A DNA stretch of 64,000 nt from an uncultured virus (IMG/VR IMGVR_UViG_3300034104_004763) (Duplodnaviria; Heunggongvirae; Uroviricota; Caudoviricetes), in the IMG/VR virus record IMGVR_UViG_3300034104_004763; one strand, written 5' to 3'. A model generated the notes under the pieces. That model had not been told where the DNA came from, ran no database searches, and saw only the letters and a list, made by a program, of their open reading frames with translations. Numbering within the stretch: the first letter of the stretch is position 1; the number at the start of each line of letters is the position of its first letter. The position numbers and the translations under genes were made by a program. This document shows positions 2,256 through 64,000 of the stretch, piece by piece.

Positions 2256-2258
2256 GTT

Positions 2259-12239: not shown

Positions 12240-12260
12240 TAATATTTAAAGATTAAAAAT

Positions 12261-17818: not shown

Positions 17819-17819
17819 T

Positions 17820-27623: not shown

Positions 27624-27632
27624 TAAGATAAA

Positions 27633-29941: not shown

Positions 29942-29946
29942 AAAAT

Positions 29947-34879: not shown

Positions 34880-34880
34880 A

Positions 34881-38253: not shown

Positions 38254-38452
38254 TGGATTTACAATCTAGTATAAAATCTCAAGGTGAGTATGTTACTCAA
38301 ATTATCCATTTTATAGGAGGTGAGAAACGTACTTTTGAGAATATCAAATCTACATCAGTTAAACAAGGTCAGTTTACTAAATTAATTACTAAAGATGGTA
38401 GAATGATTTTAATAAATGATAAAAATGTCCTCTGTATAGAGGTATTTGCAGA

Positions 38453-43999: not shown

Positions 44000-44656
44000 A
44001 TGGGAACTAGAGGTAAAGCCCCTAAAATTTACTCTAAAGAAGATTTGTTACGTGCAATGAAGGTTACTAAAAGTATTAGAGCAGCAGCTCGATACTTAAA
44101 CTGTTCATATCAGCATATTAAACCTTACTTTAAGTCCTACAGGGTTGACGACAACGATCCCAACTCGCCCACACTATTTGATACTCATAAAAACCAATTA
44201 GGAAAGGGTATTCCCAAATTCCTAAAACACCATGGTAAAGACCCTGACCTGCAAAAAATATTAACAGGTGAATTATACACTGAATCATTTAGTGTAGACA
44301 AGTTTAAACGCAGACTAATTCAAGAGGCAATACTAGCTGAAGAATGTGTTTGTTGTGGTTTTAAAGAACAACGAGTATCAGATTATAGAGTACCATTATT
44401 AATTAACTTTAAAAATGGGAACAAAAAGGATTGGAAACAAGACAATTTAGAGTTTCTTTGCTACAACTGCTACTTTTTAACAATCGGAGATGTGTTTACT
44501 AAGAAACAAGAACAGGGTATTGAGGATTATAATGAGGGTTATAAAGTAAATCAAGTAACATGGGAGTTAGATGAATACGCTGAAGAGCATTTTCGTTCAT
44601 TAGGATTTATTGATGATAAGGATAAGGATGATGACTTTATTTCTTATAATAATTAA
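44000..44656 (+). CDS. HTH plus degenerate HNH/Zn-finger protein
   Basis: SIRAAARYLNCSY; CVCCG...GNKKDWKQDNLEFLCYNC. Confidence 0.6.
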   Translation: MGTRGKAPKIYSKEDLLRAMKVTKSIRAAARYLNCSYQHIKPYFKSYRVDDNDPNSPTLFDTHKNQLGKGIPKFLKHHGKDPDLQKILTGELYTESFSVDKFKRRLIQEAILAEECVCCGFKEQRVSDYRVPLLINFKNGNKKDWKQDNLEFLCYNCYFLTIGDVFTKKQEQGIEDYNEGYKVNQVTWELDEYAEEHFRSLGFIDDKDKDDDFISYNN

Positions 44657-44773
44657 GTTTGTTAATTTAATTTTTTCTTCGTATATTTATATCATATAAC
44701 TTAAAATAATAAAAATGAATAATAATTTTAACTTAAAAAAATTCCTTGCTGAAGGAAAATTATTGAAAGAGGA
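44654..44773 (+). repeat. ~120-bp promoter + initiation region + leader-peptide repeat, copy 2
   Basis: Near-identical to 43058-43178. Confidence 0.9.
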
Positions 44774-45188
44774 ACGTTTCTATGCCCCTAACTATGTAAA
44801 ACAAAAATATGGTGATAAAGCATCTGAAATAGAGAATAATATACATGATGAAGAAGATAATAATCCCAATATTTGGGATTTATATACTTCTTTAGAATCA
44901 CCTGAAGAAGTAGATGATTTTGTTCAAGGGTTTATTAATGAATCTGAATTAAAAGAAAATGAAGGAGTAGATGAGCTTCCTTTAACTGATGAAATTAAAC
45001 AAGATGTTGATAATGCTGTAGAACGCGCTATTCGAGATGGTGAAATGGAAGAATTACAGACTGTTGGATATTGGGAAAATGATTTTGAAGACGCTTTATT
45101 AATGAACTATGAAGATCAACATCCAGACGCTTATATGATTAGTGATGAACTTCATAATTACATACAGAATAAAGTTTACGGAGAATAA
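44715..45188 (+). CDS. Acidic protein with MNNNFNLKxFLAEG leader
   Basis: Leader shared with ORF 43120. Confidence 0.65.
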   Translation: MNNNFNLKKFLAEGKLLKEERFYAPNYVKQKYGDKASEIENNIHDEEDNNPNIWDLYTSLESPEEVDDFVQGFINESELKENEGVDELPLTDEIKQDVDNAVERAIRDGEMEELQTVGYWENDFEDALLMNYEDQHPDAYMISDELHNYIQNKVYGE

Positions 45189-45203
45189 AATTTCAAATTA
45201 CCT

Positions 45204-45815
45204 ATGGAAGAGATATTAAGAATGCAACTTATAGCGGGTATAATTAATGAAAGTGAATATAAGAATTTACTAGAAGACATATCTGTAATAAATAAAATTT
45301 TAGACAAAATATCAGCCCAAGGTGAAAAATCTTTAACACCCGAAGAAAAAAATTATTTAGATCAATATTCAAAAGGAGAAAAGAATTTAATAGATCCTTT
45401 TATTTCTAATTCTACTGAGGTGTATATGTCAATTCCTTATAATGAATTGTATAAAATAAAAAATCTTCCTCCTATCCCACAGGCACCTGAAGAGATAACT
45501 TTTGATTGTGATGATATTAAAGATATAAAATCTTGTGAAAATTATCCTATAATGCTAAAATTACTTCAAAATGAAGGAGTTAAAACTATTTTAAAAAAAA
45601 TTAGTAGTTATGATCCTAATATGAAAGATAATTCTAATAATCCTTTATATTTTCATGGAATTTATTTCATAGGTAATTTTTCATCCCCTCTTGAAATAGC
45701 ATATGCTCAAGTATCAAATGATGGGTTTTTAATTATTGTAGATTCCTTGTCTGAATTTAGTGAAGGTTATCAAACTGAAGAAGAATGGAAAGTAAAAAAT
45801 TGGAAAAAATTATAA
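45204..45815 (+). CDS. Hypothetical protein with RMQxxAGIINE leader
   Basis: MEEILRMQLIAGIINESEY; ILDKISAQGEKSLTPEEK. Confidence 0.55.
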   Translation: MEEILRMQLIAGIINESEYKNLLEDISVINKILDKISAQGEKSLTPEEKNYLDQYSKGEKNLIDPFISNSTEVYMSIPYNELYKIKNLPPIPQAPEEITFDCDDIKDIKSCENYPIMLKLLQNEGVKTILKKISSYDPNMKDNSNNPLYFHGIYFIGNFSSPLEIAYAQVSNDGFLIIVDSLSEFSEGYQTEEEWKVKNWKKL

Positions 45816-46562
45816 AATTCCACCTTACATACAAAATACTTGGCCTCTTTAAGAGGCCTTCGTATATTATAATATAAAATAATAAGTTATGGCTAAAGGT
45901 AGACCAGCAGAAAATGACACTGTTATAAAACAATACACTCAAGTATTTACAGACCATAAAGGTGAAACAGCTACTTGGGAATGGGACAAAAACATTCACG
46001 CAAATGGTCCTATTAGTGTCACAGTTAAAGATCCTTATTGGAGTGTATTTGATAAAAAGGAAAAACAATTAGCTGAACTATTAAACAAATACGAGTCTAA
46101 AGGTAATGAACGTAAACCACGTATCACTAAAGCCGATAAAGAAGCAATTGAAAAGTTAGAAGAGGAAATAAATGAGATCTGGTATGACTCATTTCCTGAA
46201 GATCGCCCTAAAACTAGAAAACCAAGAACACCTAAAAACAAGTAAATGAAAGCCAAAAAAATGATCTTAAAGGATTTAGAAGAATTAATTGACTTTTCTG
46301 AAAATGAGCCTGAACAAATTCATCTCCAGACCTACAAAATGCTAAACCAAGAATGGAATAAAAACAAAAAATTCTCCATAGTTGACTTATTTGTAATTGA
46401 ATTAACTGATGATGAAGAAATGGAAGAGGTTATTTTAACTGTTCAAGAAGATGAATGGGAGCGAGCTTTAGAATTAGGATTAACACATTTTGAATTAGTT
46501 GAAAACTATGAAATGTGTGCTAAAGTTAAAAAATTATTAGAAACAATCAAAATTAAATAAAA

Positions 46563-46769
46563 ATGAGTTATTTCCAAGTAAACGTGTCTATAACAGACAT
46601 TAATGACAAAGGTAAACAAAGTAAAGTTACTGAACAGTATTTAGTAGACGCTGTAAGTGTAACAGATGCTGAAGTAAAAGTTACTAAAATGTATGAAGAC
46701 GAAGGTGGTCAAGTTGACTTCCAAGTTAAGAGTGTTAAAGAAACTAAAATTCTACAAGTAATAGAATAG
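46563..46769 (+). CDS. DUF4494-like protein
   Basis: GKQSKVTEQYLVDAVSVTDAE...VKETKI. Confidence 0.65.
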   Translation: MSYFQVNVSITDINDKGKQSKVTEQYLVDAVSVTDAEVKVTKMYEDEGGQVDFQVKSVKETKILQVIE

Positions 46770-47004
46770 TATTACCCGCCCCACCATTCCTCCATCCGTA
46801 TATACGCCATGAAACAATTATTTAAATTCAACGACAAACTCTATGTTATCGTACGCGATATGGCTACACACAATTTTGAAAACTCAAATGGTAGCATTAA
46901 CATGGAGGTTTTAAAGGCATGGAGGGATCATTTGGGGTGTGATCACGTTTTAAGACACAACGACCGTTACTTATTAGTACAAACAATACAAGACGCAATA
47001 ATAG

Positions 47005-47256
47005 ATGAAAACAGTAATTAAATATGAAGCAGGATGGTGTGGGCCATGTAAAGTATACTCTCCAACCTTTAATAGAGTAGCAGGTGAGGTATCAGGTGTA
47101 TCATTTCAAACAGTAGATGTAGATTCAGGTGATCCAAGAATAGTTGAACATGGAATTAGAAATGTTCCTACCACAGTGGTAGTAGAGAATGGTGTAGTTG
47201 TAAGACGCCAGAGTGGAAACATAAGTGCAGATCAACTAAAAGCATTGATAGGGTAA
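47005..47256 (+). CDS. trxA: Thioredoxin
   Basis: WCGPC, IRNVPT. Confidence 0.92.
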   Translation: MKTVIKYEAGWCGPCKVYSPTFNRVAGEVSGVSFQTVDVDSGDPRIVEHGIRNVPTTVVVENGVVVRRQSGNISADQLKALIG

Positions 47257-47280
47257 TATTTATTACCATACACTAAACTT

Positions 47281-48498
47281 ATGGCTCAATTAAAAGATTT
47301 ATTACCCCAAATACCTAAAGATGAATTAGCGATTTTAAAATCCCTAAATCAAGAATTAGGAAAAGAATTAACAGAAGCAACAGCTAAAGAAGCGGCTCAA
47401 GCTGTTAAAACAATTATTAAGGGGTGGAAGGGATGGTCACAAGCCATGTTAGCAGCAATGCTACTAACACCTAATATATCTAATGCCTTAGAGACATACG
47501 CTCCTGATACTTTAAATGCAATCAGAACTGAAATCTCAGGAGAAAAAGCAGCTAAAGGTGATCCAACTGCTGTTAAAACAGTAGACTTCTCACAAACATT
47601 CGTTTCAGGGCAATCAGAAATTGTTAATAAGCAAGTTATACTTACTAAAGTTAGTGATTTGAAAAAATGGATAAGTAATAATAAAACTAAACCATTTAAA
47701 ATTGTAATCACAGCTAGTGAATCTAGAGTACCTAACCCTGAAGGATTTGAACAAGGAGAATTGGCTCAAGCAAGAGGTGAAGCACTTAAAGCTGTAGTTG
47801 ATAATCTAGGAGCGCAAGATGTTGAGATTAAAACTCTAGTAGGAGGACCTGCTTGGGATGGTAAAAACAAAGACGATGCTAAATATACTAAACATCAATA
47901 CATTAAAGTACAAATAGTAATTGATACAGAAAGTATTTGTAGTTTAAGTAAAATTAGTAAAGAAGGAGAACAAGGTAACTCAGCTAATAACTTTAGAACC
48001 TATGATGAGTACCTAAATGGAGATGGTAGTATAACATTACATACTGGAACTATACCTGATAGAATGGTTGTATTAGATGAAAATGGTAGAATTACTCATG
48101 ATACTGGATATGTAGCAACAGATGGAACTAATGCTCAAAGTGGATATCAAGAATGGAATTTTGTTCCAATTTATGTTTTAAAATTAACTAAATTGAAAAC
48201 TAATAAAACTATAATAGGTTCAAATGTAGAGACTATTAAAGTTACTTCTTATGAGGATTTAGTTAGTAAAATGTTAAAACCTGGAGTAAAACAAACTAAA
48301 AGTGATACTGTTGATAAAGCCTTAGAGGAATTAAAATCAATGATTGAAAGTGGAGTTAAAGAGTTTGTTGTTTATAAAGTAGGAACAGGTGATTTAAAAA
48401 TAGAATTTAAGAATAGTAGTGGAGATTCTAAAGTCCAAATATTCTCACCCGTTGGAAAGACAGGTTTTGATTTAACAGGACAATGTACTAGAAAATAA
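47281..48498 (+). CDS. Hypothetical protein with OmpA-C-like segment
   Basis: ITASESRVPN...ELAQARGEALK...QYIKV resembles a peptidoglycan-binding fold; ATATTTAT upstream. Confidence 0.45.
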   Translation: MAQLKDLLPQIPKDELAILKSLNQELGKELTEATAKEAAQAVKTIIKGWKGWSQAMLAAMLLTPNISNALETYAPDTLNAIRTEISGEKAAKGDPTAVKTVDFSQTFVSGQSEIVNKQVILTKVSDLKKWISNNKTKPFKIVITASESRVPNPEGFEQGELAQARGEALKAVVDNLGAQDVEIKTLVGGPAWDGKNKDDAKYTKHQYIKVQIVIDTESICSLSKISKEGEQGNSANNFRTYDEYLNGDGSITLHTGTIPDRMVVLDENGRITHDTGYVATDGTNAQSGYQEWNFVPIYVLKLTKLKTNKTIIGSNVETIKVTSYEDLVSKMLKPGVKQTKSDTVDKALEELKSMIESGVKEFVVYKVGTGDLKIEFKNSSGDSKVQIFSPVGKTGFDLTGQCTRK

Positions 48499-48559
48499 AG
48501 ATAAGCTTGGTTTTACCAAGCTTTCTTCGTATATTAAATCAAATTTAAAATAATAAGTT

Positions 48560-48976
48560 ATGGAAAAAGAATTTATACCCTACGAACAAGCATTAGCTTT
48601 AAAAGAATTAGGATTTGATGAACCTTGTTTTGCTTATTATCTTAATGAAAAACTTAATATTTTTCATAGTACTTCTGTAAATGATAGAATTAACTCTAAA
48701 ACCAAAGATGTATTTAATTCAGATGTAGTTACAGCTCCAACATTCTCACAAGCATTTAGATGGTTTAGAGAGGAGTATAATTTAAGAGGTTTTATTGGCT
48801 TTAGACCTAATACTAAACAATTTGATTGTCACATTTATGATATGTCTTTATCTGGTAAAGAATATGTTAAACAAAGAACAATGGAAGAGTTTAACAAAGA
48901 CCCTAAAGTTGGTACTTACGAAGAAGCAGAACTTGAATGTCTTAAAAAATTAATAGAAATAGTTAAAGAAAAATAG
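48560..48976 (+). CDS. Hypothetical phage protein
   Basis: EFIPYEQALALKELGFDEPC...APTFSQAFRWFRE. Confidence 0.6.
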   Translation: MEKEFIPYEQALALKELGFDEPCFAYYLNEKLNIFHSTSVNDRINSKTKDVFNSDVVTAPTFSQAFRWFREEYNLRGFIGFRPNTKQFDCHIYDMSLSGKEYVKQRTMEEFNKDPKVGTYEEAELECLKKLIEIVKEK

Positions 48977-48978
48977 TT

Positions 48979-49590
48979 ATGGAAGTTAAAATTTACAGAG
49001 AGCCTGAAAATGAAGCTCTAATCTTAAATGAAGAACAGTTAGCAGAGTATCATGAGTTAACTGCTGAATTAGGATTACAAACTGTTGAGCAATCTCAAGA
49101 ACAGAAAGTACCAAATGTATATGCTTTTCTAAACTTAGCTATGACTAAGCAATTACATGCTATATGTCCTAAACATGTTGAGGTAGGAAATTATAGAAAA
49201 TCTACTATACCTGTAGAGGTATTAAAAGTGTTAAAGTTTGCTAAAGATAATAACATGTACGAAGGATATGAAATTTGGTATAATGATGTTGAACCTGATC
49301 CATTATTAATTGGGTGGAATTACTCAAGTGATAATGCTAGAGAAAAACAATATGGTTGGCAGAAAGACAGATTCTTAATGGCTAGATGGGGTGATTGCGC
49401 TATGGAATTACCTGAATTACTACAAGTAGGGTTTGATAAATTAAAACAAGAATTAATTGATAAAGCTAAGCAAGCCATATCAACTTGTAACTCAGTAATT
49501 AACGACCCGGACATTTACGTTAGAAAAATATTAAGTGAGCAAGCAGTTAATATTGATTTAACTACTACTTCATCAAATACAATTTATTAG
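48979..49590 (+). CDS. Hypothetical protein
   Basis: 203-aa ORF with DPLLIG...ARWG. Confidence 0.55.
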   Translation: MEVKIYREPENEALILNEEQLAEYHELTAELGLQTVEQSQEQKVPNVYAFLNLAMTKQLHAICPKHVEVGNYRKSTIPVEVLKVLKFAKDNNMYEGYEIWYNDVEPDPLLIGWNYSSDNAREKQYGWQKDRFLMARWGDCAMELPELLQVGFDKLKQELIDKAKQAISTCNSVINDPDIYVRKILSEQAVNIDLTTTSSNTIY

Positions 49591-49954
49591 AATTAGGGGG
49601 CTTTGCCCCTTAAATTTTTCTTCGTATATTAAATCAAATAAAAAGTTATGACAGATAGTACAAAATCACCAGCATCTAAAGAGTATCAATTATGGTGGGA
49701 AGCTAATCAGGAGCGAATATTAGCTCAAGATAGGCTTAACCATGATATGGATTACAAATCAGCATTAGTTAAACATTTAAAACAATAAGTTATGTGGGAA
49801 ATTAAATTAAAAGACGGGAGTGTTCAATGGATTAATGAACGTATAATAATGAAAATCTCCCAAAATGAGGATGGTACTTTTACATTAGAGCATTTTAATA
49901 ATTCTAAAATAATAATTAAAGGTTTTTCAAAATTATAATTTAAAAATAAAGGTT

Positions 49955-51076
49955 ATGATAAAATTTCCATCGCTGTATAAGCGTTCAAACAGTAAAGACC
50001 ACATTAATGAGTGGCAAATCGAAGTTGATGGTCATATGTTTAGAACTACAACTGGATTTGTAGGAATGAAAATGTTTACAGGTGATTGGACAACATGTTC
50101 TCCTAAAAACGTAGGTAAAAAAAATGGAACCACTGCTGAACAGCAAGCATTAGCTGAAGCACAAGCGTTATGGCAGAAACGTAAGGATTTAGGTTATTGG
50201 GAGGATGTTAATGACTGTGATAAGAAAGTGTTTTTTCAACCAATGTTAGCTCAAGACTATGATAAACGTAAAGATAAAGTTAAATATCCTATCTTATCTC
50301 AACCTAAACTAGATGGTGTTAGATGTATAGTTAAATCTGATGGAATGTGGTCCCGTAATGGTAAAGAAATTATATCTGCGCCTCATATATTCGAGAATCT
50401 AAAGCATATCTTTGAGAATCAACCCGACCTAGTATTAGATGGCGAATTATATACTTCAAATAGGGACGTTGATTTTAACACAATTATCTCATGTGTTAGA
50501 AAAACTAAACCAACACAAAGTGATTTAGACTTATCAGCTAAATACATTGAGTATTGGATGTATGACATAATTAATGATAAGGATCAGGGTTATGAAGAAC
50601 GATATGAGGATTTAATTGAATTAAAACAAGAATTTAATTTAGACCCATTTATGTTTCATGTAATAGCAACTTTTGAATTACCTGATGAAAAACATGTTAT
50701 GGAACAATTAAGTCATTATATTGAACAGGGTTTTGAAGGTCAAATACTAAGATATCCTGATTCGTTTTATGAAAATAAACGTTCAAATGGTTTATTGAAA
50801 CATAAAACGTTTCATGATGAAGAGTTTAAAATACTATCCATTAATGAAGGTGGAGGTAAGTTTGCTAATAAAGCCGCTACAATGTCATTCCAAACATCAA
50901 TTGGTGTTAAATTTGATGCTACTATTAATGGTACAATGGAGTACTTAGAGGAGGTTTGGGCTAATAAAGACAAATTAATAGGTAAGTTAGCAACTGTTAA
51001 GTATTTTGAAGAAACAACTGACGGTTCATTACGTTTTCCTAAAGTAATTAATATTGATAGAGCTAGTTATGAATAA
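49955..51076 (+). CDS. lig: ATP-dependent DNA ligase
   Basis: PMLA, QPKLDGVR, LDGELY, EGQILR, LLKHK, LRFP. Confidence 0.93.
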   Translation: MIKFPSLYKRSNSKDHINEWQIEVDGHMFRTTTGFVGMKMFTGDWTTCSPKNVGKKNGTTAEQQALAEAQALWQKRKDLGYWEDVNDCDKKVFFQPMLAQDYDKRKDKVKYPILSQPKLDGVRCIVKSDGMWSRNGKEIISAPHIFENLKHIFENQPDLVLDGELYTSNRDVDFNTIISCVRKTKPTQSDLDLSAKYIEYWMYDIINDKDQGYEERYEDLIELKQEFNLDPFMFHVIATFELPDEKHVMEQLSHYIEQGFEGQILRYPDSFYENKRSNGLLKHKTFHDEEFKILSINEGGGKFANKAATMSFQTSIGVKFDATINGTMEYLEEVWANKDKLIGKLATVKYFEETTDGSLRFPKVINIDRASYE

Positions 51077-52197
51077 GTTTATATTAACAATAATAGTATT
51101 ACTAAGTTTAACTTGTAATGCACAACGAAAAAATAAAGCATTTGACCGTAGATACTTTTATCATTGGGAATCAGTTAACCCACAACAATTTGATATGGAA
51201 ATTATCATCTATAAAGAGAGTGGTAAAGCATATGTAACTGAATTTAAAGCAGATCATGATGGTAAGTTAGGTGGAGGAATTTTATATGCTACAGTTTATG
51301 TTTGTAGGAATAAAAAAGGTAGAATGGCTGTAGAGACAATTGATCCTTCTACATTACAAATTATAGATAGTGAATATATTCTCACTAAGGATAAACAACT
51401 ACTAAGAGTAACACAAAACGATACAATCACATTTAAAAGAAGACATTAATATGATACGAGCAATAGTAGGAGCGATAGCAGCAGGATTAGTTTTAAGTGG
51501 ATTTGTAATAGGTTTTACTTTAATTATACAAGGTATAACAAAAGACATACGTAAAAATGGAAAAAACAGGTAATACTGAAAAACTCAAATACGAATTTGA
51601 GACTGCTGCTAATTTAGAAGTGTTTATGCCTAACTTAAAGGATTGGTATAGAGTAACCGCAAGAGAATTCCGTTCATTCACAGGAAAACGACGTATAAAC
51701 AACGTGGAATATGATGGTGATGTGTATCTGTATGGAACTAATAAGTTAGCTGATTTAAAAACTGTTATTCAAGATAGATTAGCAGGGTTTAGTTGGGTTT
51801 CTAAAAGAAGACCTGGAGAAGATTAGGAGAATTAAAAATTTTTTAGTATATTTAAATCATCAAATAATAAATAATGACAGAAAAATATTATCAAATATTA
51901 TTGAAAACAGGAAAAGTTCATCCATCACTTTATGTTAATCTTCAAACAGCCATTAGAAAGGTAGGAGTAGAAAATGTTAAGGAAATTAAGGAAATTAGAG
52001 CAGAATTAGTTAATGCCAAGTACAACGAAATAGTGGGAACAATTAATATAGAATAGTATGTCTAAAACATCATCAAAAAATAAGTATGAGCAATTAATGG
52101 CCTGGTTACCAACATTAAATCAGCCTAAAACAAAAGTAGAACAATCAACAACTAAATTCAGCAAAGCTGATCATTACAAATCTAAAGGAGTAAAATA

Positions 52198-52359
52198 ATG
52201 AGTGAAAGAAAGCAGATTATTAGTCAAGTAAAAGAGTTAGGTATTAAAACAAACAAACCTGCTCACATGTGCACTACAACTTATCTTAAAGGATTGTTAC
52301 CTAAAGAAGAAGTTAAGATTGGGTTTTTTAAGAGGGTTTTAAGAAGATTAGGCTTTTAA
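52198..52359 (+). CDS. 53-aa protein sharing its N-domain with ORF 58231 (not in ORF track)
   Basis: IISQVKELGIKTNKPAHMCTTTYLKGLL versus IIAEVKKLGLTTEKPAHQCKTEYLQELL. Confidence 0.65.
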   Translation: MSERKQIISQVKELGIKTNKPAHMCTTTYLKGLLPKEEVKIGFFKRVLRRLGF

Positions 52360-52406
52360 AGCCTTTCTTCGTATATTAGGGTATTATTAATTTAAAAATA
52401 AAGGTT

Positions 52407-53204
52407 ATGAGTTTAAAAGCATTATCAAAAGAGGAGTTAAAATCATTAGCACCTCAAACATTCAATCATGTAGTTAGTTCAAATTTAACTAGCAAGTATG
52501 TTCACATTCCAACAGACACTATTGTTGAGGACATGGAAGCATTAGGATGGTTTCCATTTAATGTTAAAACTGTTAAAGCAAGAAAGAAAAATGCTCAAAC
52601 AGCTAAACACTTAATTCAGTTTTTTAATCCTGATATTGTTATTAATGATGAGGAGGGTAAAGCTGATATGGTTCCAACATTATTGTTAATCAACTCACAT
52701 GATGGTTCCACAGCTGTTAGGTTTGAAATGGGTGTGTTTCGTTTTGTATGTGAAAATGGTTTAGTTGTTAAATCAAAGGACTTTGGTGGGTTCAAAATGA
52801 AACACATGGGTTACACATTTGAAGACTTAAGAGTTCACATCAATAACATGGTAAAGGAATTACCAACTGTAGTTGCTAACTTAAACAAGTTCTCACAAGT
52901 TGAAATGACACCTGAACAACAACATGAGTTTGCTATTAAGGCGGTTGAGGCTCGTTTTGGAGAAGAAAAACAACTAAATGATGAAGAAATTAAAAACTTA
53001 TTAGTAGCTGAACGTAAGGAAGATGTTGGTAATAATGTTTGGGTTGTATTGAATCGAGTGCAGGAAAAATTAACAAGTGGTGGGTTTAGTTACTTAGGTG
53101 TTAAAGGTAAACCAAGAAAAGCACGAGCGGTTAAGAATTTCACACAGGACGTTGAAATGAATACCAAATTATGGGAATTAGCTGAGACATATTTAGTTAA
53201 TTAA
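52407..53204 (+). CDS. DUF932/DUF945 family protein
   Basis: LLLINSHDGS, GVFRFVCENGLV, WVVLNRVQEKL, NTKLWELAE. Confidence 0.85.
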   Translation: MSLKALSKEELKSLAPQTFNHVVSSNLTSKYVHIPTDTIVEDMEALGWFPFNVKTVKARKKNAQTAKHLIQFFNPDIVINDEEGKADMVPTLLLINSHDGSTAVRFEMGVFRFVCENGLVVKSKDFGGFKMKHMGYTFEDLRVHINNMVKELPTVVANLNKFSQVEMTPEQQHEFAIKAVEARFGEEKQLNDEEIKNLLVAERKEDVGNNVWVVLNRVQEKLTSGGFSYLGVKGKPRKARAVKNFTQDVEMNTKLWELAETYLVN

Positions 53205-54170
53205 TAAAAAGGGGCCTAGTATTAGGCCCCTTAAATTTGACTTCGTATATTAAGGCATAATTAAAAATAAAAGGTTATGGAAAAATTATTTAAAGATGTA
53301 GATTATTTTATTATTGAAGCATCAAATCGTACACACACTGAATTTGAATTAGACTTTGTGGATGTTATTGAAGTATTTGATGCAAATTCTATAACATTAA
53401 CTACTGAAGATGGTAAATCATTAAAAATTACTTATGATGAAAGAGGTTACTTTAAATCTTACTTTGTAGATGTAGAACCTATTACTCATCTAATGAGTCA
53501 ATCATCTTATATTGAAAGTCAAGTAAAAGACATTATCAAAACTCTAAAACATTTAACATATAATGGTCAAAGTGTTGATGGTGAAACTATGCAATACATT
53601 CTAGAGAAGGTAGGTATGCAAGACCAAATGCTAAAACAATTAGTAATGTCTCAACCAATAGAGGAGGTTAGGTATGTGTTTGAGGAGAGAGAAGAATTAG
53701 AAGAATTTAATAAAAAATAATTAAGTTATGAGAAAAGTAATAGTTAAGTACAAAGACAGTGAACAAGCACTAACATACAACATTGTTAGTTTTAAAAATG
53801 ACAAACGTCAAATTCTAGTTGAACATTTAAAAGAATTCTTAGCAAACCCAAGAGTAGAATCATACAAAATTGTAGACATATCAGGACGATTATCAGACCC
53901 TGATAAAGAAAGTAAATCATACGAGTCAAAATACGAACGGGAAAGTAATAAACTGCCTAAAGTAATTGCTAATGAGGTAACACAAGTTGCTACTACATTA
54001 AAGGGTTGTACTAAGGAAACTGTTGATAAATGGAATAAACATCTCGATTTTGATTTACATACAAAATTAAATGGTGAGTACGGGTTTACAGGTGCTAAAA
54101 GGTTATATAACATATTTGGCTTGTAAAATTTAACTTCGTATATTTAAGTATAATTTAAAAAATAAAGGTT

Positions 54171-54947
54171 ATGATAGTAATTCAAGCATTAGAAGAACAA
54201 AAAGCTGTCTTCAAAACACAAAAGAATGAACTAGAAGAAGCTAGATCTGAAATCTACACAAGAAAGGAACAAGCAATGAGTGATGCTTTAATCCCTTACT
54301 TTGAAGGGTTCAATCCCGATGTTTACATTGAGGTAACAAGAGGATCTATTTATTTTAAAATGGACCACTCCGAGTTAAATCGTAGAAAGGAATTATTTAC
54401 CCTTTATTTAAGAGAAAGATATTTTGAAGAAGGGCAACGTTATGATGGAGTTGATTTATCTTATTATACAACTTCAACAAAAGGAGATGATGAATGGGAA
54501 TTAAAGAGATTGAGAATATTAGGTGACATAGCTGATGTTGTATTAAAGCGTCAACATGATATAGTTGACACTGCCAATTATACTTCAAATCTTTTTAAAG
54601 ATGAGTTTACAAGAAGTTATAATCAAATGAATCTAATAAACAAAGCTATTAGAGAATTAGATGAAAAAATCTCAGTTATTAGTAAAGAGAAAATTGCATT
54701 CGATTTGAAGAATGGAGGAATTCAATTTAAAGAAACAGCTTATATTGACTTAAAACATAATTACACTCCTAGAGTTAACAGCATTAAATTAATTGATTTC
54801 TCACCTTCAGGTAAAAAAGCAACTGCTGTATTTACATGGGCACATGGTGGTCAAGAAGGTAGAGAAGAAGGTGTAAATGTAGGTAGAGTAACTGATCAGG
54901 TAGTAGGATATGCTAATATTATTATTAAAAAAGAATTGGCTAATTAA
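54171..54947 (+). CDS. Hypothetical early protein
   Basis: 258-aa ORF with its own promoter. Confidence 0.55.
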   Translation: MIVIQALEEQKAVFKTQKNELEEARSEIYTRKEQAMSDALIPYFEGFNPDVYIEVTRGSIYFKMDHSELNRRKELFTLYLRERYFEEGQRYDGVDLSYYTTSTKGDDEWELKRLRILGDIADVVLKRQHDIVDTANYTSNLFKDEFTRSYNQMNLINKAIRELDEKISVISKEKIAFDLKNGGIQFKETAYIDLKHNYTPRVNSIKLIDFSPSGKKATAVFTWAHGGQEGREEGVNVGRVTDQVVGYANIIIKKELAN

Positions 54948-54991
54948 ATTTAACTTCGTATATTAAGACATAATTAATAAAATAATAAGTT

Positions 54992-55252
54992 ATGATAGTA
55001 GAAAAATTATTACAAGAAACAGCTAACAAGCGAATCTTTTCAGTTACGTTCATTAAACGTACAACAAAGGAGGTCAGAAAAATGAACGCTATGAGAGGTG
55101 TTCGTAAGGGAGTCAAAGGTGTTGGTTTACCATTTGAAGCATCAGAAAAAAACCTATTAACGGTCTATGACATGAAGAAAAAAGGATTCAGACATATCAA
55201 TTTAAATGATGTGTTAGAATTTACTGCTAACAAACAAAAACATGTAAAGTAA
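54992..55252 (+). CDS. Small SH3/WYL-like beta-barrel protein
   Basis: FSVTFIKR..EVRKM...VYDMKKKGFRHIN. Confidence 0.55.
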   Translation: MIVEKLLQETANKRIFSVTFIKRTTKEVRKMNAMRGVRKGVKGVGLPFEASEKNLLTVYDMKKKGFRHINLNDVLEFTANKQKHVK

Positions 55253-55881
55253 TTATGAGCTTAGTTAGTGATTGCTGTGGAGCATATTCAGAATATGCTG
55301 GTGATATAGACATTTGTCCTGATTGTTATGAACATTGTGAGTTTTATGATGATGAAGAGGAGGATGAGGTTGAAGATTTAAGAGATCCTAATGGAGAAAA
55401 TTAAATAAAGTAATTGGCTAAATAAAATAGTCTTCGTATATTTAAACTGTTAATTTAAAAATAATAAGTTATGTTTAAAACAGAAAAAGCAAGAGAGTTA
55501 TTTAGTCAATTACTAGATGTTAATTGGAAAATTGATAATAAAGAGTATCGTTCACTTGAAGAACGAGTTGAATTAAATACTGAGTATCATAAGTTATATC
55601 AGGGATTAATGTTAGAAATGGGTACAAAGGAGTTTACTGAGTTTATGGAGATGGGTAATAAATTGTTTAATTAAAAATAAAAGTTATGACATTACAGGTT
55701 ATCAATACTAAAAAGGAAAAATTCAATCAAATTCGTTCAACAAAAGAAACATTATTTGCTGATGTAAAATCTCAAGGTTGGAATCTTCAAGATTGTAAAG
55801 TAACAGAACTAAAAGAAGAATTAGTTTATACTTTATATAGAAGTGCTGACGGTAAAAATTCAGCAAATTATTAAATAAAAA

Positions 55882-56027
55882 AGTCAGGTGGCGGAATTGG
55901 TAGACGCTACGCAATTATACTTACGAGTAAACTACCACCATAAATCTAAATTAGGTTGTACAGAAACGATTTAGTAAGGGTAAGTTGATAAAAGGTTTAC
56001 ATACAGGTTCGATTCCTGTCCTGACTA
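55882..56027 (+). ncRNA. tRNA-like RNA with intact acceptor, D and T arms but a ~95-nt insert in place of anticodon/variable arms
   Basis: AGTCAGG/CCTGACT acceptor stem; GCG-GAATTGGTAGA-CGC D arm; ACAGG-TTCGATT-CCTGT T arm. Confidence 0.75.
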
Positions 56028-56082
56028 CTATTACAACATAAGTGTTTCATAACCACTTATTATTTTTAATTATACCCGTGAT

Positions 56083-56104
56083 TAGCCCCGAAAGGGGCTA
56101 TTTA
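56083..56104 (+). terminator. Intrinsic terminator
   Basis: TAGCCCC-GAAA-GGGGCTA-TTT. Confidence 0.7.
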
Positions 56105-56659
56105 CATTATTTGGTTAATTAAAAAAGACTTCGTATATTAAAGCATATTAATAAGTTAAAACAAATGTTATGGAACCTAAAGTAATAAAACAGAAAATGA
56201 CTGAATTTATTAAAGAAAATTCTTTATTAATTCAAGAATTGAAAGATGAATATGGTAGAAAATATTGGATGGAGGAATTTTATAATGAAAGTAAAGTTCA
56301 AACATTTATGAACTCCTTTATCCTCACTAAAGAGGAATTAGAAGATTATGGACATGGGTGGACGGATGAAAAAGATGAGATGTTTTATGAATTACTTAAT
56401 AAAAAATAACTTATAAAAAATTTGGATAGTATTAAATTACTTAGTATATTAAATCATATTAATAATAAAAATAATAAAGGTTATGACAGAAAAAGAATGT
56501 AGAGAAGCTTGGGAAAAGTATCAACAAACTGCTCACCCTGAAGACATGATGTCTTATATGGAGTTTAGAAGTGAAATGGGAATTGAGGACGAAGAGGAGT
56601 ATTAGGCTTATTAAATTAGTCTTCGTATATTAAAGTATAATTAAAAAATAATATAAGTT

Positions 56660-57019
56660 ATGGCAACAAGAAGTAGAATTGGAATTCAAGACGAGAATGG
56701 AACAATACGTTCAATCTATTGTCACTGGGATGGTAACCCTGATGGAGTAGGAGCTACATTAGAAGAGCATTACTCAAACCGACAAAAACTAAACATGCTA
56801 ATTAATTTAGGTGATATTAGTATATTAGGTGAGAACATAGCTACAATGGATGAACATTCATTTAACAACCCTAAAGAAGGTGTAACAGTAGCTTATCATA
56901 GAGATAGAGGTGAAGAATTAAAACCGGCCCGAGTTGATATTTCATTAGACACATTTTATGTATCTGAAAAGTATGGTTATGTTTATACTCTAGAGGGTAA
57001 ATGGGTAACTTTTAGTTAA
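56660..57019 (+). CDS. Phage early hypothetical protein
   Basis: MATRSRIG...SIYCHWDG...AYHRDRGE. Confidence 0.6.
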   Translation: MATRSRIGIQDENGTIRSIYCHWDGNPDGVGATLEEHYSNRQKLNMLINLGDISILGENIATMDEHSFNNPKEGVTVAYHRDRGEELKPARVDISLDTFYVSEKYGYVYTLEGKWVTFS

Positions 57020-58230
57020 GTTTGGCAGTTAATTAATTTCTTCGTATATTTAGATGTAAATAATAATAAAATGAAAGTAGTACAATTTACATTACAAGAA
57101 AGATGGGCTGCATCTAAACACATGGTTCAAAAGAACAAGAAGAAATACAACCGTAATGAAAAGCATAAAAAGGATTCTAATAAGAGTCCTTATTTAGTTT
57201 CTTTGAGTGTATAAATTAGCTTCGTATATTAAAGTATAATTAAAAATATAAAAGATTATGAAAAAATTTATTAAGGGTTTATTTAATACTAATACAGGGT
57301 ATTTTATAAATACAATTTCATACTACTATGAAGGTAAATATTATACAGGGTACATTTTATGTAAAGGTTTTATTATATTTGGGATACCGGGATATGATCG
57401 AATAGAAATATTTCTTAATAAAAATGAGGCTGAGACTTCTTTAAATAATTTAAAATAATAAAGTTATGCCAAAAGGACAAGGAACAATCAATTATTGGGG
57501 AGTAGATATTGATATTGAATATTACTATGAACCATTAGTAAGAGGTAGAATGTATATGGACAATGGTGATCCAGGTTATCCTGATGAGGGAGGTGAATTC
57601 TGTATTGAAAAAGCATTTATTGGGGGTCAGGATGTAACTGAATTACTAGAAGATAAACTAGAAGCAATAGGGAATGCTTATTATGATCAATGTGATGGGG
57701 AATTTTAATACCCCGTTTGGCAAGTATAAATTAACTTCGTATATTAAATCATATTAATAATTAAAAATAATAAAGTTATGAACAAAACGCAAACAATCGA
57801 TTTATTAAAAAGTCAAATGCCTGGATTCTATTCAGTAGAACAAGTTATCAATCTTATCGAAAAGATTGAAGAAGAAGAACAACAAGCAACTGCTAAACTT
57901 ACTTTCGATCAAGTTAGAGAACTTACTCGAAGTATTGTTAATGCAATTGAAGAAGAAGCTCAAAGAGATAACATCGTTAATTTTGAAGATGTTGAATTTG
58001 AATTAGGTTGGGATAGAAAAATTGAAGTAACAGACGTTCCAATTAATTTTGATGCAATTAGAGATTGTGTTGAAGAACAATTGATTGAGTTCTTTGAAAT
58101 AGAATCTTTATTCATATCTTTAGGTATCAATAATTAAAATGAGGGGCCATGTATTTGGCCCCTATAAAATAGCTTCGTATATTTAGAATGTTAAAAAAAT
58201 AAAAATAAGTTTAATTAAAATTTAAAGGTT

Positions 58231-58632
58231 ATGAACAGAAATGAAATTATCGCAGAAGTAAAAAAACTAGGTTTAACAACAGAAAAACCAGCACATCAGT
58301 GTAAAACAGAGTATTTACAAGAATTACTCAATTCACAATACTTTATTGTGACAGAGGTAAAACGTAAAGGTAGACCAGTAAGTGAAAACAGTAACCGACA
58401 AAAACGAATTGCTGAATTAGAAGCAAAACGAGCTGCTGGTGAATTAAGAAAAGGTAGACCGGTTGTTGAAGGAAGTAATCGCCAAATAAGATTATCACTT
58501 AAAGGTACTCTTAAATTAGGTAGAAAACCAAATCCTGAAAGTGCAGCTTACAAACGCAGAATGGAATTAGAAGCTAAACGTGCAAATGGTGAATTAAAGA
58601 GAGGTAGACCAGCACAAGTAAAAGCAGAGTAA
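58231..58632 (+). CDS. Basic protein with repeated GRP (AT-hook-like) motifs
   Basis: RKGRP x2, LGRKP, KRGRP; repeated ELEAKRAxGEL. Confidence 0.65.
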   Translation: MNRNEIIAEVKKLGLTTEKPAHQCKTEYLQELLNSQYFIVTEVKRKGRPVSENSNRQKRIAELEAKRAAGELRKGRPVVEGSNRQIRLSLKGTLKLGRKPNPESAAYKRRMELEAKRANGELKRGRPAQVKAE

Positions 58633-61600
58633 TTAAATTAAAAGGGGTATAATGATGATATTATACCCCATCCCTTAACCATTAATCAGTATATATTGAA
58701 AAAACATACAGTAATCAATAAAAAATACGTTAAATTATACAAAAATCAGCCTAAATTTAAACCTAAATCATGTTATGTGATAGGTTGTGTTTACTATGGT
58801 AGAAATCGTTCAAATCACTTAAAATTAGGTGTATTAATGGAGTTAGGTGATAAAACATCTACACTTAAATTAAAAGATGGTACTAAAGTTAAAGTTAAAA
58901 ATATAACTTTAAAAAGTGCTCAAATAGGGAAATAAGGAGTATAAAATTTCTTCGTATATTAAAGCATATTAATAATAAAAAATAATAAAGTTATGACAAA
59001 AATTAAAGTAAAAATTACTCACAAAACATTAATGATGAGTATGGAGTTTCCACTTGAAGTAGGACAAGTAAAAATGGATGCTGAATGTCAAGTGTTTGTT
59101 TACAAAGACAGAGAATCAGGGTATTTAACTGGTGATTTTGATTTCATGGATTACAAAAATACCACATACATGGGTATGCCGATTGATGGTTATAAGGGAA
59201 TGCAAAAGTTAAGAGATTTCCATACTGAATTAGGAATTGATCTACAGAAATTAATTAATGATGAATTTTATAAAATCATTAATGAAGAATTTCAAGCTGA
59301 TTTTGTATCACAATTTGATATTAAAGATTTTGAGTACTAATAAAGTAGGACCCAGTATTGGGTCCTATATTTTTTCTTCGTATATTAAATCTGTTAATTT
59401 AAAATAATATAGTTATGAAAGAAGTTAGAGAATACTTTGAAAAGAATTATGGTTATGTAAATCTAGATGAGTTGACAGATGTATTTATTCAAAAGTATTT
59501 GGATCAACCATGGATTACTAATTTACCATTTGAAAGAAAGATGGATTGTTTATATGATTATATTCTATCACAGGATTTATGCGATATTCAAGAATAAAAC
59601 TCAAATGAGAGTATTTGGGGAGTTAAAATAATCTTCGTATATTAAGACATAATTAATAAATAATAATGTTATGACAAGACAAGAATTTGAAAACGGTACA
59701 CCTTTTAGAGTAAAAGGTATTCACAACGACAAAGGTAGTTCAACTTATTACTTCCATGATGGAACAATTTCCAAACAAATAAGAAGTAATATTGATGAAA
59801 GAACATTAACAGATGACTATCACCTAAATGTAGATGAGGTATCAAATAAATGGTTTAGTGGGTTTGTGTATGTGATGACTAAGAAAGTAACTGTTAAGCA
59901 TAAGTTTGAAGACCTAGTAGTGTTTGAATAATAATAAAGGGCCATGTATTTGGCCCTTATATTTTAACTTCGTATATTAAATCATATTAATAATTAAAAA
60001 TTTAAAGGTTATGTTAAATACAACTTATTTAGGTAGAGAAATTGTAAGACGTGATAACGTCAAAGTAGAAGGTACATTCGCATCGGTTCATGAAGCTGAA
60101 GAACGCTTGAGAAAGATGGGGTACATGATAGGAAGCATGTGTGGAGATGAACCAATAGGATTCGCATGTAAAGAAAAATATGATTATATAGCGAAATGGA
60201 GAAACATAAACCCGAGTGATAGAAATAAAGTGGAAGGAGTGATGATCAGTACTGATTGGAGAGAGGGTAGTGTGGATATAATATGGTTCGAAGAACCTAA
60301 AACAGCAATTGGATAGTATAAAATAACTTCGTATATTAAATCATAATAATAAAATAATATAGTTATGACATTAGAGCAAATGAATGCCGAGAATAAGTTA
60401 GTGACCGAAAAACATATGGTGGTGAAAGAATTAATAAACCACTTACATGAAGCACAATTCGATAGAACTACACGTACAAGTGTGATGTTGACAGAATTGA
60501 TGAAAAAAATAAATGAAATGTTGAAAAATGATTTTTAATACTTTAATTGGAGTGTATAAATTAACTTCGTATATTAAATTTATAATTAATAAATAATATA
60601 GTTATGAGAAAAGGTACAGTTACAGGTGAATTAAAATCTATTTTTGAAGAATTAAATATAAAGTATACTGGATGTTACTCCGATACTTATAATTTAAAAA
60701 ATGGGGATGATGTTAATTTAAAAAGAGTAGGAGTAAAATTTATGGGTGTATACCTAACTCAAGAACAAATTAATATAATAAAAGATAAAATGGGTAAAAA
60801 AGGATTTACTTATGATTTTATTAAAGAGAATAGAGGTAAAAGTTTATATGGTACTAATGGTACTAGGTTTTGTTTTAAGTATTAAATAATATAATGTGGA
60901 ATACACCTCCTAATATAATATAACAATGAACAAATGTTCCTAAGTTAATATAATGGGGGTGTGTTGTATATGGAAACCGGAATGAGTTAGGGTGAATACA
61001 GGGAACAGGGTTCCGCACCCACGTGTATGTCATGAATGAGTTTTTAACCAACTCACCTCGTATATACACTCTTAAAACCATTTTAAATAAAGATATAAGG
61101 GGTATAAAATTTCTTCGTATATTTAATTATAATTTAAAAATATAAATGTTATGAAAAAGTTTTTATTAAATGTTAAGTATTTTGGGATCTGGGGTATAAA
61201 TAAAATTTATTCTTTAAAGTATTTAAGGTTAGATACTCCAATATCACTACCCACCACAATAATTGTTATATGTGTTTGGTTTGTATTGTTAACTTATATA
61301 TTAGTTCTATAATACCTGGCTTGGAAAGTATAAAATAGCTTCGTATATTAAGGTATAATTAATAAATAATAAACGTTATGAAAGTAAAAGATTTAATTGA
61401 CAGATTAAGTAAGTGTGATCCTAACCAAAGAGTAATTTTAGAATACACCGACCATACTGATTGGGTATATAAAATGGAGTTTGGTGAAGATGAAATTTTA
61501 GATGATTTTGAAATGTTTGTTGGTATAAATAATGAGGATGAAGATGTATTTGAAAAAGTTGTATTAATTGAGTGTAAAGAAGAAAATGACGTTCAAGATA

Positions 61601-61916
61601 ATTTTTCAAGTTAATTAAAACCATTAAACATTATTTGGAGTGTATAAATATTCTTCGTATATTATATTATAATAATTAAATAATAATAAGTTATGAAAGC
61701 AAAAGTGCAAATTAAATCAGTGTTTGAACAAATCGCCAACAACGTATTTACAATGAAAGATGTTAACCAAGCCAAGGTATTCATCACCGAATTTATCACC
61801 AGTAAAGGTATAGACGGTGTAGATAAAAATACTATTGTGAATAACGTTAGCAGATGTACTAATATTAATCAATTACAACGTTACGTGTGTAATTCGTTAT
61901 TGATGTACGAAGGAAT

Positions 61917-61943
61917 GGGAGTTAGTTAAACTCCCGTTTTTTT
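61917..61943 (+). terminator. Intrinsic terminator closing the early-gene array
   Basis: GGGAGTT-AGTTA-AACTCCC-G-T7. Confidence 0.75.
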
Positions 61944-61965
61944 ACTTTTTTTTGAAATAAAATTT

Positions 61966-62125
61966 GAGGGGACACCCTACCCGAACGGGCATGCACCACA
62001 CACGAACGGGCACGGGTTGGTGTCGAATGCCCACACGTCGTTGCTGTCCGTACACGAGATGGTGTCGAACACGTGTAAAATTTCCGCACCTTTCAGATCG
62101 AAAACGATCTTTCACCCAGGCCCTC
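61966..62125. other. GC-rich non-coding element with direct and inverted repeats
   Basis: CGAACGGGCA x2, TGGTGTCGAA x2, GACACC/GGTGTC, AGATCG-AAAA-CGATCT. Confidence 0.6.
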
Positions 62126-62791
62126 ATATATACTCATATACTAAAACAAATGTAGGTCTCCCCCTATTCCATATACTTATAGGAAATTAAAATTAAATAA
62201 AATGAAACAGATCAAAACCTTAACCTCTATGAGTGAAACGCTTGTTCTCCTATTGGAAGATCTAACCAACTTATTAAATGATATCGATAATGGTGATTTA
62301 GTAAGGGAAATCGAGAATAACGTTGTTTCTCCCATGGAAGACGCTCAAGCCCAATTGGATATTATCTTAGATGATATTGATGATGGAGTGTATGATGAAC
62401 ATTCAGAAGAAGAATTTGAAGAGTGGGAATAACCCTTTTGGAAAGTTTTTCCTAGAATGTAAAAATCTCTTTTAAAAAAGTTTTTTGGGAAGTCGAGCAT
62501 ATATACTACTTAAACTAATAAATTAGTTGAAGCTGTTAATCCCTAGCCTAAAGTTAGGGATTATTTGGCTTCCTAACCTTTTCTTCGTATGTTAATTATT
62601 ATGAGAAAATTATATTATAAATTAGTTATGTTCATAGGTTATACAATCATAATTCATGATCACTACAACCCAGAAACATTTGAATTAGAAAAGAAATATG
62701 CCTATATAGGGATTTATAAGTACCTAGGTAATTTTAAACACGACGGAAGTTTAAAGATGATTAGAGTTTGGGAAATTAAAATAAGATAGTT

Positions 62792-63013
62792 ATGTAGCAA
62801 ACAGCAGTAGAATGGTTAGTGAATGAAATTATGACTAAGCATGATAAATCATTTCTTGAATTTTATGGTTCAGAAGTTACACAAGCCAAAGAAATGGAAA
62901 AGCAACAGATTATTGATGCACATGGTAATCAACAAAAAAAATCAGGTGGTGTTTCTAATTACACTTATATTTTAACAGGTGAAAAATACTATAACGAGAC
63001 TTTTAATAAATAA
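62792..63013 (+). pseudogene. M(K)QTAVEWL-type gene with amber codon at position 2
   Basis: GTT-ATG-TAG-CAA-ACA-GCA-GTA-GAA-TGG in frame with ORF 62819. Confidence 0.6.
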
Positions 63014-63467
63014 GTTATGATAAAAGTAAGATTAATACTAATGTTTCAAGGAAGGGTAGAACACGACATTGAAACCGAAATGATAAGACCTAGATTAAAA
63101 GAAACAATTACTCTACATGAACGTGGAGGACATTATAAAATAAAGTTTATCCAACATATGTTTAATGATAAAGGAGAATTTGAATCTCTAATGGTAACAG
63201 GAATAAAAAAAGTATAATGAATATTAAAGAACTAATAGAGACTCTTTCCACATTAGATTCTGAACTAAGAGTTGTAACTCGTGGTTACGAAGGAGGCTAT
63301 GACGATATAGAATGGCCTGTAGGTAAAGATTCTCCTAATGTTATTGATTTGGCACTTCATGTTAATCCAGCATGGTATTATGGTAACCATGAAATGGTAA
63401 GTGAAGATCATCAGTATGGAACTAACGTTGAAGTAGTTAAAGCAATTGTATTATAAAATTTCTCCTA

Positions 63468-64000
63468 ATGTCTAAAATAATCCAATATACACAGGCTAAA
63501 GAAATGGAAATTAACGGCGATCTAATTATCTATGATACAGATCGAGTAGTTACTCCTTTAAACCAAAATTCCAATTCTTCTTTATGGAAAGAAAATTTCC
63601 AAAAATTAAAACAAAAATTTAAAAAGGTTCCTCTTCACAAACTAATAGAATTTCTTGATTTCGATTATGTTATAGAATATAAACATCAAGAACAAGGAGA
63701 TACTCCTACTACTATCTGGTCTTACTCATATGGTAAAACTCCTAGTAGTGCTTATGTATTAGAAAAATCTTTTAATAAAGGTAAATATGTGTACATACTT
63801 ACTAATGAGGCATATCCAAATATATGTAAAATAGGAAAAGCAATTCAACCTACTTACCGTGTAACTAAAGTTAACGGGTCAGGAACAGTCTCTGAATGGC
63901 AACTGCGTTGGGCTTTACCTGTGTCTGATGATTATAAAGTGGAGAGTGTAGTACATAAAACTTTAGAGCATCTACGTATGAATTCGTTTCAAGGATCATC
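63468..64000 (+). CDS. T5orf172-type GIY-YIG domain protein (3'-truncated by window edge)
   Basis: Manual translation: GKYVYILTNEAYPNICKIGKA...RV...VESVVHKTL. Confidence 0.7.
   Translation, partial: MSKIIQYTQAKEMEINGDLIIYDTDRVVTPLNQNSNSSLWKENFQKLKQKFKKVPLHKLIEFLDFDYVIEYKHQEQGDTPTTIWSYSYGKTPSSAYVLEKSFNKGKYVYILTNEAYPNICKIGKAIQPTYRVTKVNGSGTVSEWQLRWALPVSDDYKVESVVHKTLEHLRMNSFQGS

Follow-up and report, generated by a model that had tools for sequence, protein, structure and literature searches.

The tRNA-shaped element of 146 nt at positions 55882-56027 of the window, by which we mean the whole 64,000-nt stretch of viral DNA analysed here, is almost certainly a real, conserved and non-decoding RNA built on a tRNA-Leu chassis. 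Judged by sequence comparison, its long central domain is a giant variable arm and not a replacement of the anticodon arm, and the element very probably belongs to a phage RNA family in which interiors are exchanged between constant ends. The reading that we prefer, with a probability of about 0.45, is that the RNA would act on a host factor through this variable-arm domain, hereafter called the cargo.

The element gave the sole Rfam match above cut-off in the 64-kb window (tRNA, 34.3 bits; cut-off 29), no other known Rfam family being matched; ARAGORN did not call it in the window, where no second copy was found either. When IMG/VR was searched with the exact 5' and interior patterns, the matches were limited to two contigs of the same sequence as the window. 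The transcription unit that holds it lies on the plus strand, as do all its features, and is headed by an early-type phage promoter motif (TTGG..TTCGTATATT, 55414..55442), one of 29 co-oriented TTCGTATATT copies in the window against 0 on the minus strand. The TTCGTATATT motif resembles the Bacteroidota -7 box. Two small ORFs follow, the unit's first gene of 67 aa (55471..55674, from the ORF list, no PHROG match) and a 62-aa ORF (55686..55874), which served as a synteny marker and whose stop codon lies 7 nt upstream of the tRNA-shaped RNA. The order is completed by an AT-rich hairpin (56038-56060) and a terminator-like hairpin (56083-56100), the latter agreeing with the first-pass annotation, which had placed the element before a terminator; relatives with an empty site have both hairpins too. 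The surrounding early region (52368-61654) contains 20 near-identical copies of a promoter motif, in most cases with a copy for every one or two small ORFs; its organisation is PeSL-like, and relatives have a shuffled gene order.

The window is part of a large phage encoding DNA polymerase, clamp loader, GroEL, ligase and Que proteins. Its host was probably a member of the Bacteroidota, as suggested by the promoter consensus and by 6 of 16 matches of a family 24-mer in genome collections, which lie in Bacteroidota-labelled MAGs. As a side observation, the DNA polymerase at 15676-18755 is encoded in frames of 576 and 311 aa, about 410 nt apart, which correspond to consecutive parts of one profile and are followed by a homing endonuclease gene; an intron is possible, and no Rfam match was found there at cut-off. 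The regions 11003-13743 and 26199-41815 contain QueD, QueE and GTP cyclohydrolase genes, possibly for a 7-deazaguanine pathway, together with a cluster of glycosyltransferase, aminotransferase and epimerase genes.

Scanning metagenomes for the helix adjoining U48 retrieved 21 loci, namely nine direct homologues (seven distinct sequences), three loci of a shorter variant that shares the closing helix, and nine chance matches, which were dropped. The seven distinct homologues are 88-95% identical to the window RNA and all lie in unrelated flanks. Over the alignment of eight rows, a class II cloverleaf is 99% paired, with changes on both sides of five pairs: two in the acceptor stem, one in the hairpin of the anticodon slot and two in the distal hairpin of the cargo. 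The first-pass annotation had named a lack of covariation among homologues as the mark of a decayed tRNA or att-site scar, and compensatory changes were found instead. In a shuffle test of the cloverleaf, the figures of which are inflated by related rows, the cell count was reached by 0/500 and the pair count by 48/500 shuffles; the stability of the whole window RNA relative to shuffles corresponds to a z of -1.72.

The 5' strand of the acceptor stem (55882..55888) reads AGTCAGG, a family signature, and pairs 5 and 6 of this stem are double-changed in three of eight homologues. It is followed by U8, G9 and a D arm of the Leu type, recognised from sequence (55889..55907; 3-bp stem, A14, A15, G18G19, A20a). 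At 55910-55925, the anticodon slot (55908..55926) forms an imperfect hairpin that contains a C.A mismatch and has a loop of 6 nt, or of 4 nt in three of eight homologues; a 7-nt anticodon loop cannot form. Pair probability in this hairpin is only 0.15-0.27, and a C-G pair is changed to U-A in 3/8. The 74-nt cargo (55927..56000), defined by pair probability and compensatory pairs, comprises a basal helix (55927-55933/55994-56000; p 0.87-0.95) and a distal hairpin (55946-55952/55968-55974 plus 55955-55957/55965-55967) with two compensatory pairs, one of them occurring as three pair types, and an invariant 7-nt loop (55958-55964). With a U at position 2 and a purine at 6, this loop at the cargo tip is loosely anticodon-loop-like. 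Between the variable helix and the T stem, A47 and U48 (56001..56002) are unpaired, as in tRNA-Leu, U48 being the partner of A15. The T arm (56003..56019) has an ACAGG stem, of a type enriched in oversized tRNA-like RNAs, and the acceptor 3' strand, the discriminator A73 (56027) and C74 (56028) occupy 56020..56028.

In this supported fold, the GTAAAC(T)/(G)GTTTAC helix closes the 74-nt domain two bases before the T stem, like the variable arms of T4 and T5 tRNA-Leu. The long hairpin that had been proposed to replace the anticodon arm must therefore be abandoned, since the homologues place the long domain in the variable arm. Of the two helices put forward for it, TAAATC/GATTTA is only 79% paired in eight homologues, with one pair broken in 7/8, while ACTTAC/GTAAGT is uninformative because it is invariant in 8/8, and it costs about 3-4 kcal/mol relative to the alternative. 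The remaining description made from the single sequence was confirmed at 55882-56027: a length of 146 nt, a 7/7 acceptor stem, a Leu-type D arm, a canonical T arm, A73 followed by CTA, and a 95-nt middle in which ACGCA has no TGCGT partner. Its phrase 'no anticodon stem' is right as regards the absent partner but too strong otherwise, as the slot retains a non-decoding, covarying hairpin remnant. Of two other structures considered, the single-sequence MFE register of the distal hairpin was rejected, as two of its pairs are broken in 7/8 homologues, and a pseudoknot (55919-55924/55980-55985), both strands of which are invariant, is unsupported because one strand overlaps the covarying slot hairpin.

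Related RNAs are widespread in viromes. A pattern of D arm, gap and T loop was matched by at least 113 IMG/VR loci and a 3'-end pattern by at least 131, and across these the conserved ends covary and the middle varies, which is what the first-pass annotation had proposed to look for. Among the matches listed for the former pattern, 84 of 112 analysable loci have an acceptor stem paired 7/7 and lack an inner T loop, and the 57 unique loci, picked by D arm and T loop, use 34 acceptor sequences and have U48 in 57/57. An RCAGG T stem (RCA at 49-51) was present in 44 of these 57 oversized RNAs, again among the matches listed, versus 22/183 ordinary tRNAs; the ACAGG/RCAGG type occurred in 2/30 phage tRNA-Leu genes. 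The constant ends measure about 26 nt at the 5' side and about 30 nt at the 3' side, and lengths in the 3'-end set, the 3' end of which is fixed by the query, run continuously from 69 to 182 nt among the matches listed. The 188 unique copies without an ARAGORN call, likewise among the matches listed, fell into 158 interior clusters, and a further 39 copies drew ARAGORN calls with scattered anticodons. Copies sit in tRNA arrays or between small ORFs, with up to 12 in one contig (27 kb). Since the family 24-mer was found in only 16 stretches among 185,579 species genomes, all of them MAG contigs, and was absent from the cultured-phage collection, in which only short T-arm-level matches occurred, these RNAs are not host tRNAs.

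The variable-arm geometry extends beyond the close homologues. A helix ending 2 nt before the T stem was found in 33/82 cases versus 8.6 expected, and this offset occurred in 31/98 members versus 2-14 at other offsets; a canonical anticodon arm was present in 2/98. In a second subfamily (five rows), the same basal helix contains three compensatory pairs, and 15 small clusters together contain 11 compensatory versus 4 broken pairs. Compared with shuffles, interiors gain only a little in stability (mean z -0.64; 7% below -2), and when 40 short loci, out of about 250, were scanned by Rfam E-value, tRNA was the only family matched over the interiors.

In the window subfamily, the cargo varies at 6 of the 62 columns not fixed by the query and the frame at 22/60 (Fisher p 5e-4, the columns not being independent). 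The six variable cargo columns represent two compensatory pairs and two facing positions. This higher conservation could partly come from a recent spread of one allele into older frames. One family interior was also found without tRNA ends, closed by its own long helix: in L125 (about 2195-2295, minus strand), the interior of L208 and L223 stands free behind a tRNA-like gene, with a closing helix of about 16 bp. No interior derived from coding DNA was seen among 178; compared with the masked loci, these gave 12 matches at E<1e-4, which were other tRNA-like RNAs or one free-standing hairpin RNA. A search of the window RNA's interior against 401 Bacteroidota genomes, among which the true host genome is not included, yielded 21 matches at E<=0.05, which is chance level, and complementarity between the interior and the window did not exceed chance. 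No recurrent neighbour gene was found, the best being present at 9/191 loci. With neither a base-pairing target nor a linked gene, a host protein would therefore be the likeliest partner.

Exchange of interiors was evident at individual sites. Behind the same 62-aa ORF, two relatives with flanks 96-99% identical each have a different interior, and in two more the site is empty (a seventh match in this synteny set was spurious and left out), so that the site is known with three different interiors and twice empty, a fourth interior being seen in RNA contigs. As two relatives do without it, the RNA is not essential there. In a complete 168-kb relative whose site is empty (L287, L288; record G005), the tRNA cluster is headed by a single family copy together with further oversized or irregular tRNA-like RNAs; yet another of these, which has a different acceptor stem, lies two genes upstream of the orthologous empty site. 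A second phage group, richer in GC, was compared at one of its sites: 51/53 loci could be scored and fell into 16 interior types, one being a two-copy block. Where flanks were at least 90% identical, 228 of 266 pairs differ in their interior (228 vs 38), and several of these interiors were met again, 90-100% identical, in the different flanks of unrelated phages. The only sequence that a 1.66-kb test locus has in common with five other phage records is the RNA, and at L197:381-453 an ordinary tRNA-Ile(UAU) body bears the family acceptor stem. Exchange breakpoints coincide with the repeated element, as is characteristic of PeSL-type exchange. Comparison of loci shows, at the level of sequence, that the constant ends mark where interiors and whole copies are exchanged, and homologous recombination via these ends would be the simplest cause, although swapping through shared ends would also be expected were the interiors neutral.

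Several features suggest that these RNAs are handled as tRNAs. Among the matches listed, U-1 is present in 163/205 family copies, compared with 122/176 true tRNAs of the same loci, and C74 in 200/205, compared with 175/176; CCA is not encoded in the window RNA, as in most true tRNAs of these phages. The match of leader and C74 to true tRNA genes fits the first-pass proposal of a tRNA mimic or a processed scaffold carrying a small RNA, and maturation of the window RNA by the host appears likely. According to PMC9976931, the E. coli leucine set consists of A73, A15-U48, G18G19, A20a and the D/T-loop contacts, the anticodon arm and the variable arm being dispensable for leucine identity. The window RNA carries this set in full (A73, A15-U48, G18G19, A20a, U8-A14, U54-A58), in keeping with the earlier remark that charging by LeuRS is conceivable, and it may be leucylated by the host enzyme, at roughly even odds. 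When members were picked by the 3' end only, the full set was present in 89/155 and at least one element was lacking in 66/155, among the matches listed. The T-stem positions conserved in the family coincide with pairs 49-65, 50-64 and 51-63, which set EF-Tu affinity according to PMC11231383.

Regarding expression, contigs from two freshwater metatranscriptome runs (one study) cover family ends and the locus of a close relative with a different middle of 32 nt, a genomic version of which was searched for and not found. No RNA contig in these runs spans the interior of the window RNA, contigs being unable to show absence. In RNA contigs of family members, A73-C-C was read at three back-joints, whereas among genomic tails it occurs in 8/205, and one tandem joint in a run that is probably DNA also has the extra C; the back-joints are a weak hint of CCA addition.

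Stable tRNA-like RNAs of comparable size have precedents in phages. T5 RNA1 and RNA2, annotated 'tRNA-like stable RNA with unknown functions' (AY543070), resemble the window RNA in their length (125-144 nt), tRNA ends and elbow, and oversized non-decoding middle. RNA1 shares with the family a D arm of the Leu type, and its variable helix likewise stops 2 nt short of the T stem; RNA2 (L290:5960-6084) has nearly the same T arm, which suggests a shared constraint on oversized phage tRNA-like RNAs. The similarity is limited to the D arm in RNA1 and to the T arm in RNA2; RNA1 keeps and extends its anticodon stem, whereas the large domain of the window RNA is in the variable arm, and with 26.7 bits RNA1 scored no better against the window model than ordinary tRNAs. 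The 15 kb of T5 examined hold one copy each of RNA1 and RNA2, whereas the window-RNA family is multi-copy. T4 RNA C and RNA D (rnaC, rnaD), without a known role according to PMC3014915 and PMC9697503, are likewise stable phage RNAs (139 and 119 nt) beside tRNA genes, and RNA C ends in a T arm as the window RNA does; they lack a Leu-type D arm, and their sequence similarity does not extend past the T loop. With class II tRNA-Leu (RF00005), the window RNA shares the identity elements given in PMC9976931 and the variable-arm geometry, but it lacks the 7-nt anticodon loop and has a 74-nt variable arm. Allo-tRNAs and irregular tRNA polycistrons also combine a class II chassis with free or non-functional anticodons, and some such RNAs are charged yet unused in translation; they differ in having 8/4 or 9/3 branches and mostly Ser or Ala features, against 7/5, Leu features and a very large variable arm here (PMC5389517). 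PeSL cassettes of T4-type phages (PMC2839356) are likewise short repeats in hyperplastic early regions that exchange modules, but they are promoter-terminator DNA motifs, whereas here the repeat is an RNA gene between such signals and the module lies inside it.

A tmRNA was rejected, the RNA having U3-A70 instead of G3.U70 and no ARAGORN or Rfam tmRNA call. The Y RNA YrlA gave no Rfam match at E<=5 in 44000-64000, and no Ro60/TROVE gene was found when the 54 ORFs of the window, itself part of a genome, were compared with PHROGs. In engineered tRNA-scaffold expression, a tRNA frame reportedly processes and protects a cargo RNA placed in the anticodon stem; that scaffold is artificial, and the window RNA would be a natural, exchangeable version. 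Full-text searches of a mainly open-access literature, main texts only, turned up no description of the family or of interior exchange, and no such family appeared in passages of PMC7824862, PMC11555353 and PMC13282480; large candidate-RNA lists in supplements could hold it.

We propose that the phage makes a small RNA on a tRNA-Leu chassis which would display an interchangeable structured domain. The RNA would be co-transcribed with the two small early genes, cut out of the transcript by host RNase P and 3' trimming, stabilised like a tRNA by virtue of CCA addition, and probably charged by host LeuRS. The variable-arm domain would be the business end, binding a host factor, and a host immune protein that binds RNA or tRNA is our pick for the target, because an arms race would be expected to bring about a fast turnover of alleles, each of them strictly conserved. 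Early expression context, together with this turnover, points to such a counter-defence role. More tentatively, freshwater Bacteroidota phages may share a library of RNA effectors, with more than 100 distinct cargo domains carried as cassettes on the tRNA-Leu chassis. The chassis would then provide processing, stability and perhaps leucylation and double as recombination arms; each cargo would be aimed at a host protein, e.g. an immune effector, and cassettes would circulate between small and large phages.

Alternatively, the chassis by itself could be the active part, a tRNA decoy that titrates a host tRNA-binding protein (a tRNA-targeting immune effector, Rel, EF-Tu or LeuRS) by means of its elbow, acceptor end and T stem, the interiors merely folding out of the way. 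What stays constant corresponds exactly to the top half and elbow of a tRNA, the type of T stem is kept across 34 acceptor sequences (among the matches listed) at the pairs to which PMC11231383 attributes EF-Tu affinity, and very different interiors occupy the same site. We consider this rather unlikely, as the cargo is more conserved than the chassis in the window subfamily; moreover, in the retron-Eco7 system, as reported in PMC11555353, anticodon or stem-loop changes abolished rescue by a phage tRNA, so that decoding appeared necessary there. For the specific decoy suggested by the first-pass annotation, one for anticodon nucleases, no direct support was obtained. The elements could also be PeSL-like joints, whose cleavage by RNase P and at the 3' side punctuates polycistronic early transcripts and whose repeats shuffle small ORFs, the released RNA being inert. 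Shuffling by repeats has the PeSL precedent (PMC2839356), copies alternate with small ORFs, and 57/149 members start at most 19 nt after an upstream stop codon (among the matches listed). This seems unlikely for the window RNA, which separates no genes because it ends its unit right before the terminator; in addition, a promoter-like motif lies directly upstream of the RNA in another phage, and the cargo sequence is conserved beyond the needs of pairing.

The other readings are improbable to varying degrees. That of an antisense or guide RNA on a tRNA scaffold, pairing with RNA of the host or of a rival phage, would account for the invariant unpaired stretches of the cargo and for allele diversity; we regard it as improbable in view of the chance-level matches in the 401 Bacteroidota genomes and the lack of any excess in the window, searches by which short seeds would be missed, and of the 12 interior matches, which are not to coding DNA. 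An intron-containing gene spliced to a decoding tRNA (Lak-type) has parallels in oversized phage tRNAs with introns, reported in 10.1101/356790, and L031:2001-2110 (minus strand) looks like one, being a tRNA-Leu with intact anticodon stem and variable arm and an insertion of about 40 nt in the anticodon loop, hence a candidate phage tRNA intron. This reading is largely refuted and very improbable for the window RNA, whose insert is in the variable arm, whose slot loop has 4 or 6 nt, and whose family shows the continuous lengths given above for the matches listed. In agreement with the earlier statement that intron removal would not restore a tRNA, a deletion scan found no single deletion giving a 5-bp anticodon stem and a normal loop: 16 deletions reach at least 4/5 anticodon-stem pairs, no 5/5 case has U33, and the two that retain the native 5' strand and loop have only 4/5 pairs. 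A decayed tRNA, att scar or MITE without RNA function could be invoked for the filled and empty sites, for the 5-nt TATTA on both sides of the window copy, and for an acceptor stem that is formally a terminal inverted repeat. Decay is refuted by the covariation, with compensatory changes in three helices, and this group of readings is highly improbable as a whole, given the conserved C74 and U48 and the lack of a target-site duplication signal: 205 copies showed no excess, the mean shared word being 4.42 versus 4.15-4.46 in shuffled pairings.

The tRNA-like stable RNAs of T4 and T5 have been without a function for decades, and the family constitutes a large natural experiment in which one chassis, many alleles, and filled and empty sites in close relatives permit direct tests of chassis versus cargo. 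If the cargos are effectors, they would correspond, at the RNA level, to accessory-gene cassettes and would supply new anti-defence RNAs. The family is also a warning that many phage tRNA calls labelled 'pseudo' or 'undetermined', or oddly assigned, are not decoding tRNAs. Further RNAs of unusual build were encountered in the loci retrieved. In the 71-nt copies of L136 and L159, the family chassis bears a normal anticodon arm with the anticodon UUU (Lys); these copies are possibly decoding chimeras. In L090, a tmRNA-like match (1-292) is directly followed by an oversized tRNA-like RNA (293-436). L127 and L153 (reverse strand, offsets 3986 and 4279) hold another tRNA-like family, with a CCATTCT/AGAATGG acceptor, whose ends are the same in two closely related phages, with RNA lengths of 105 and 236 nt; the longer RNA has its additional sequence at the tip of an extended helix in the anticodon position.
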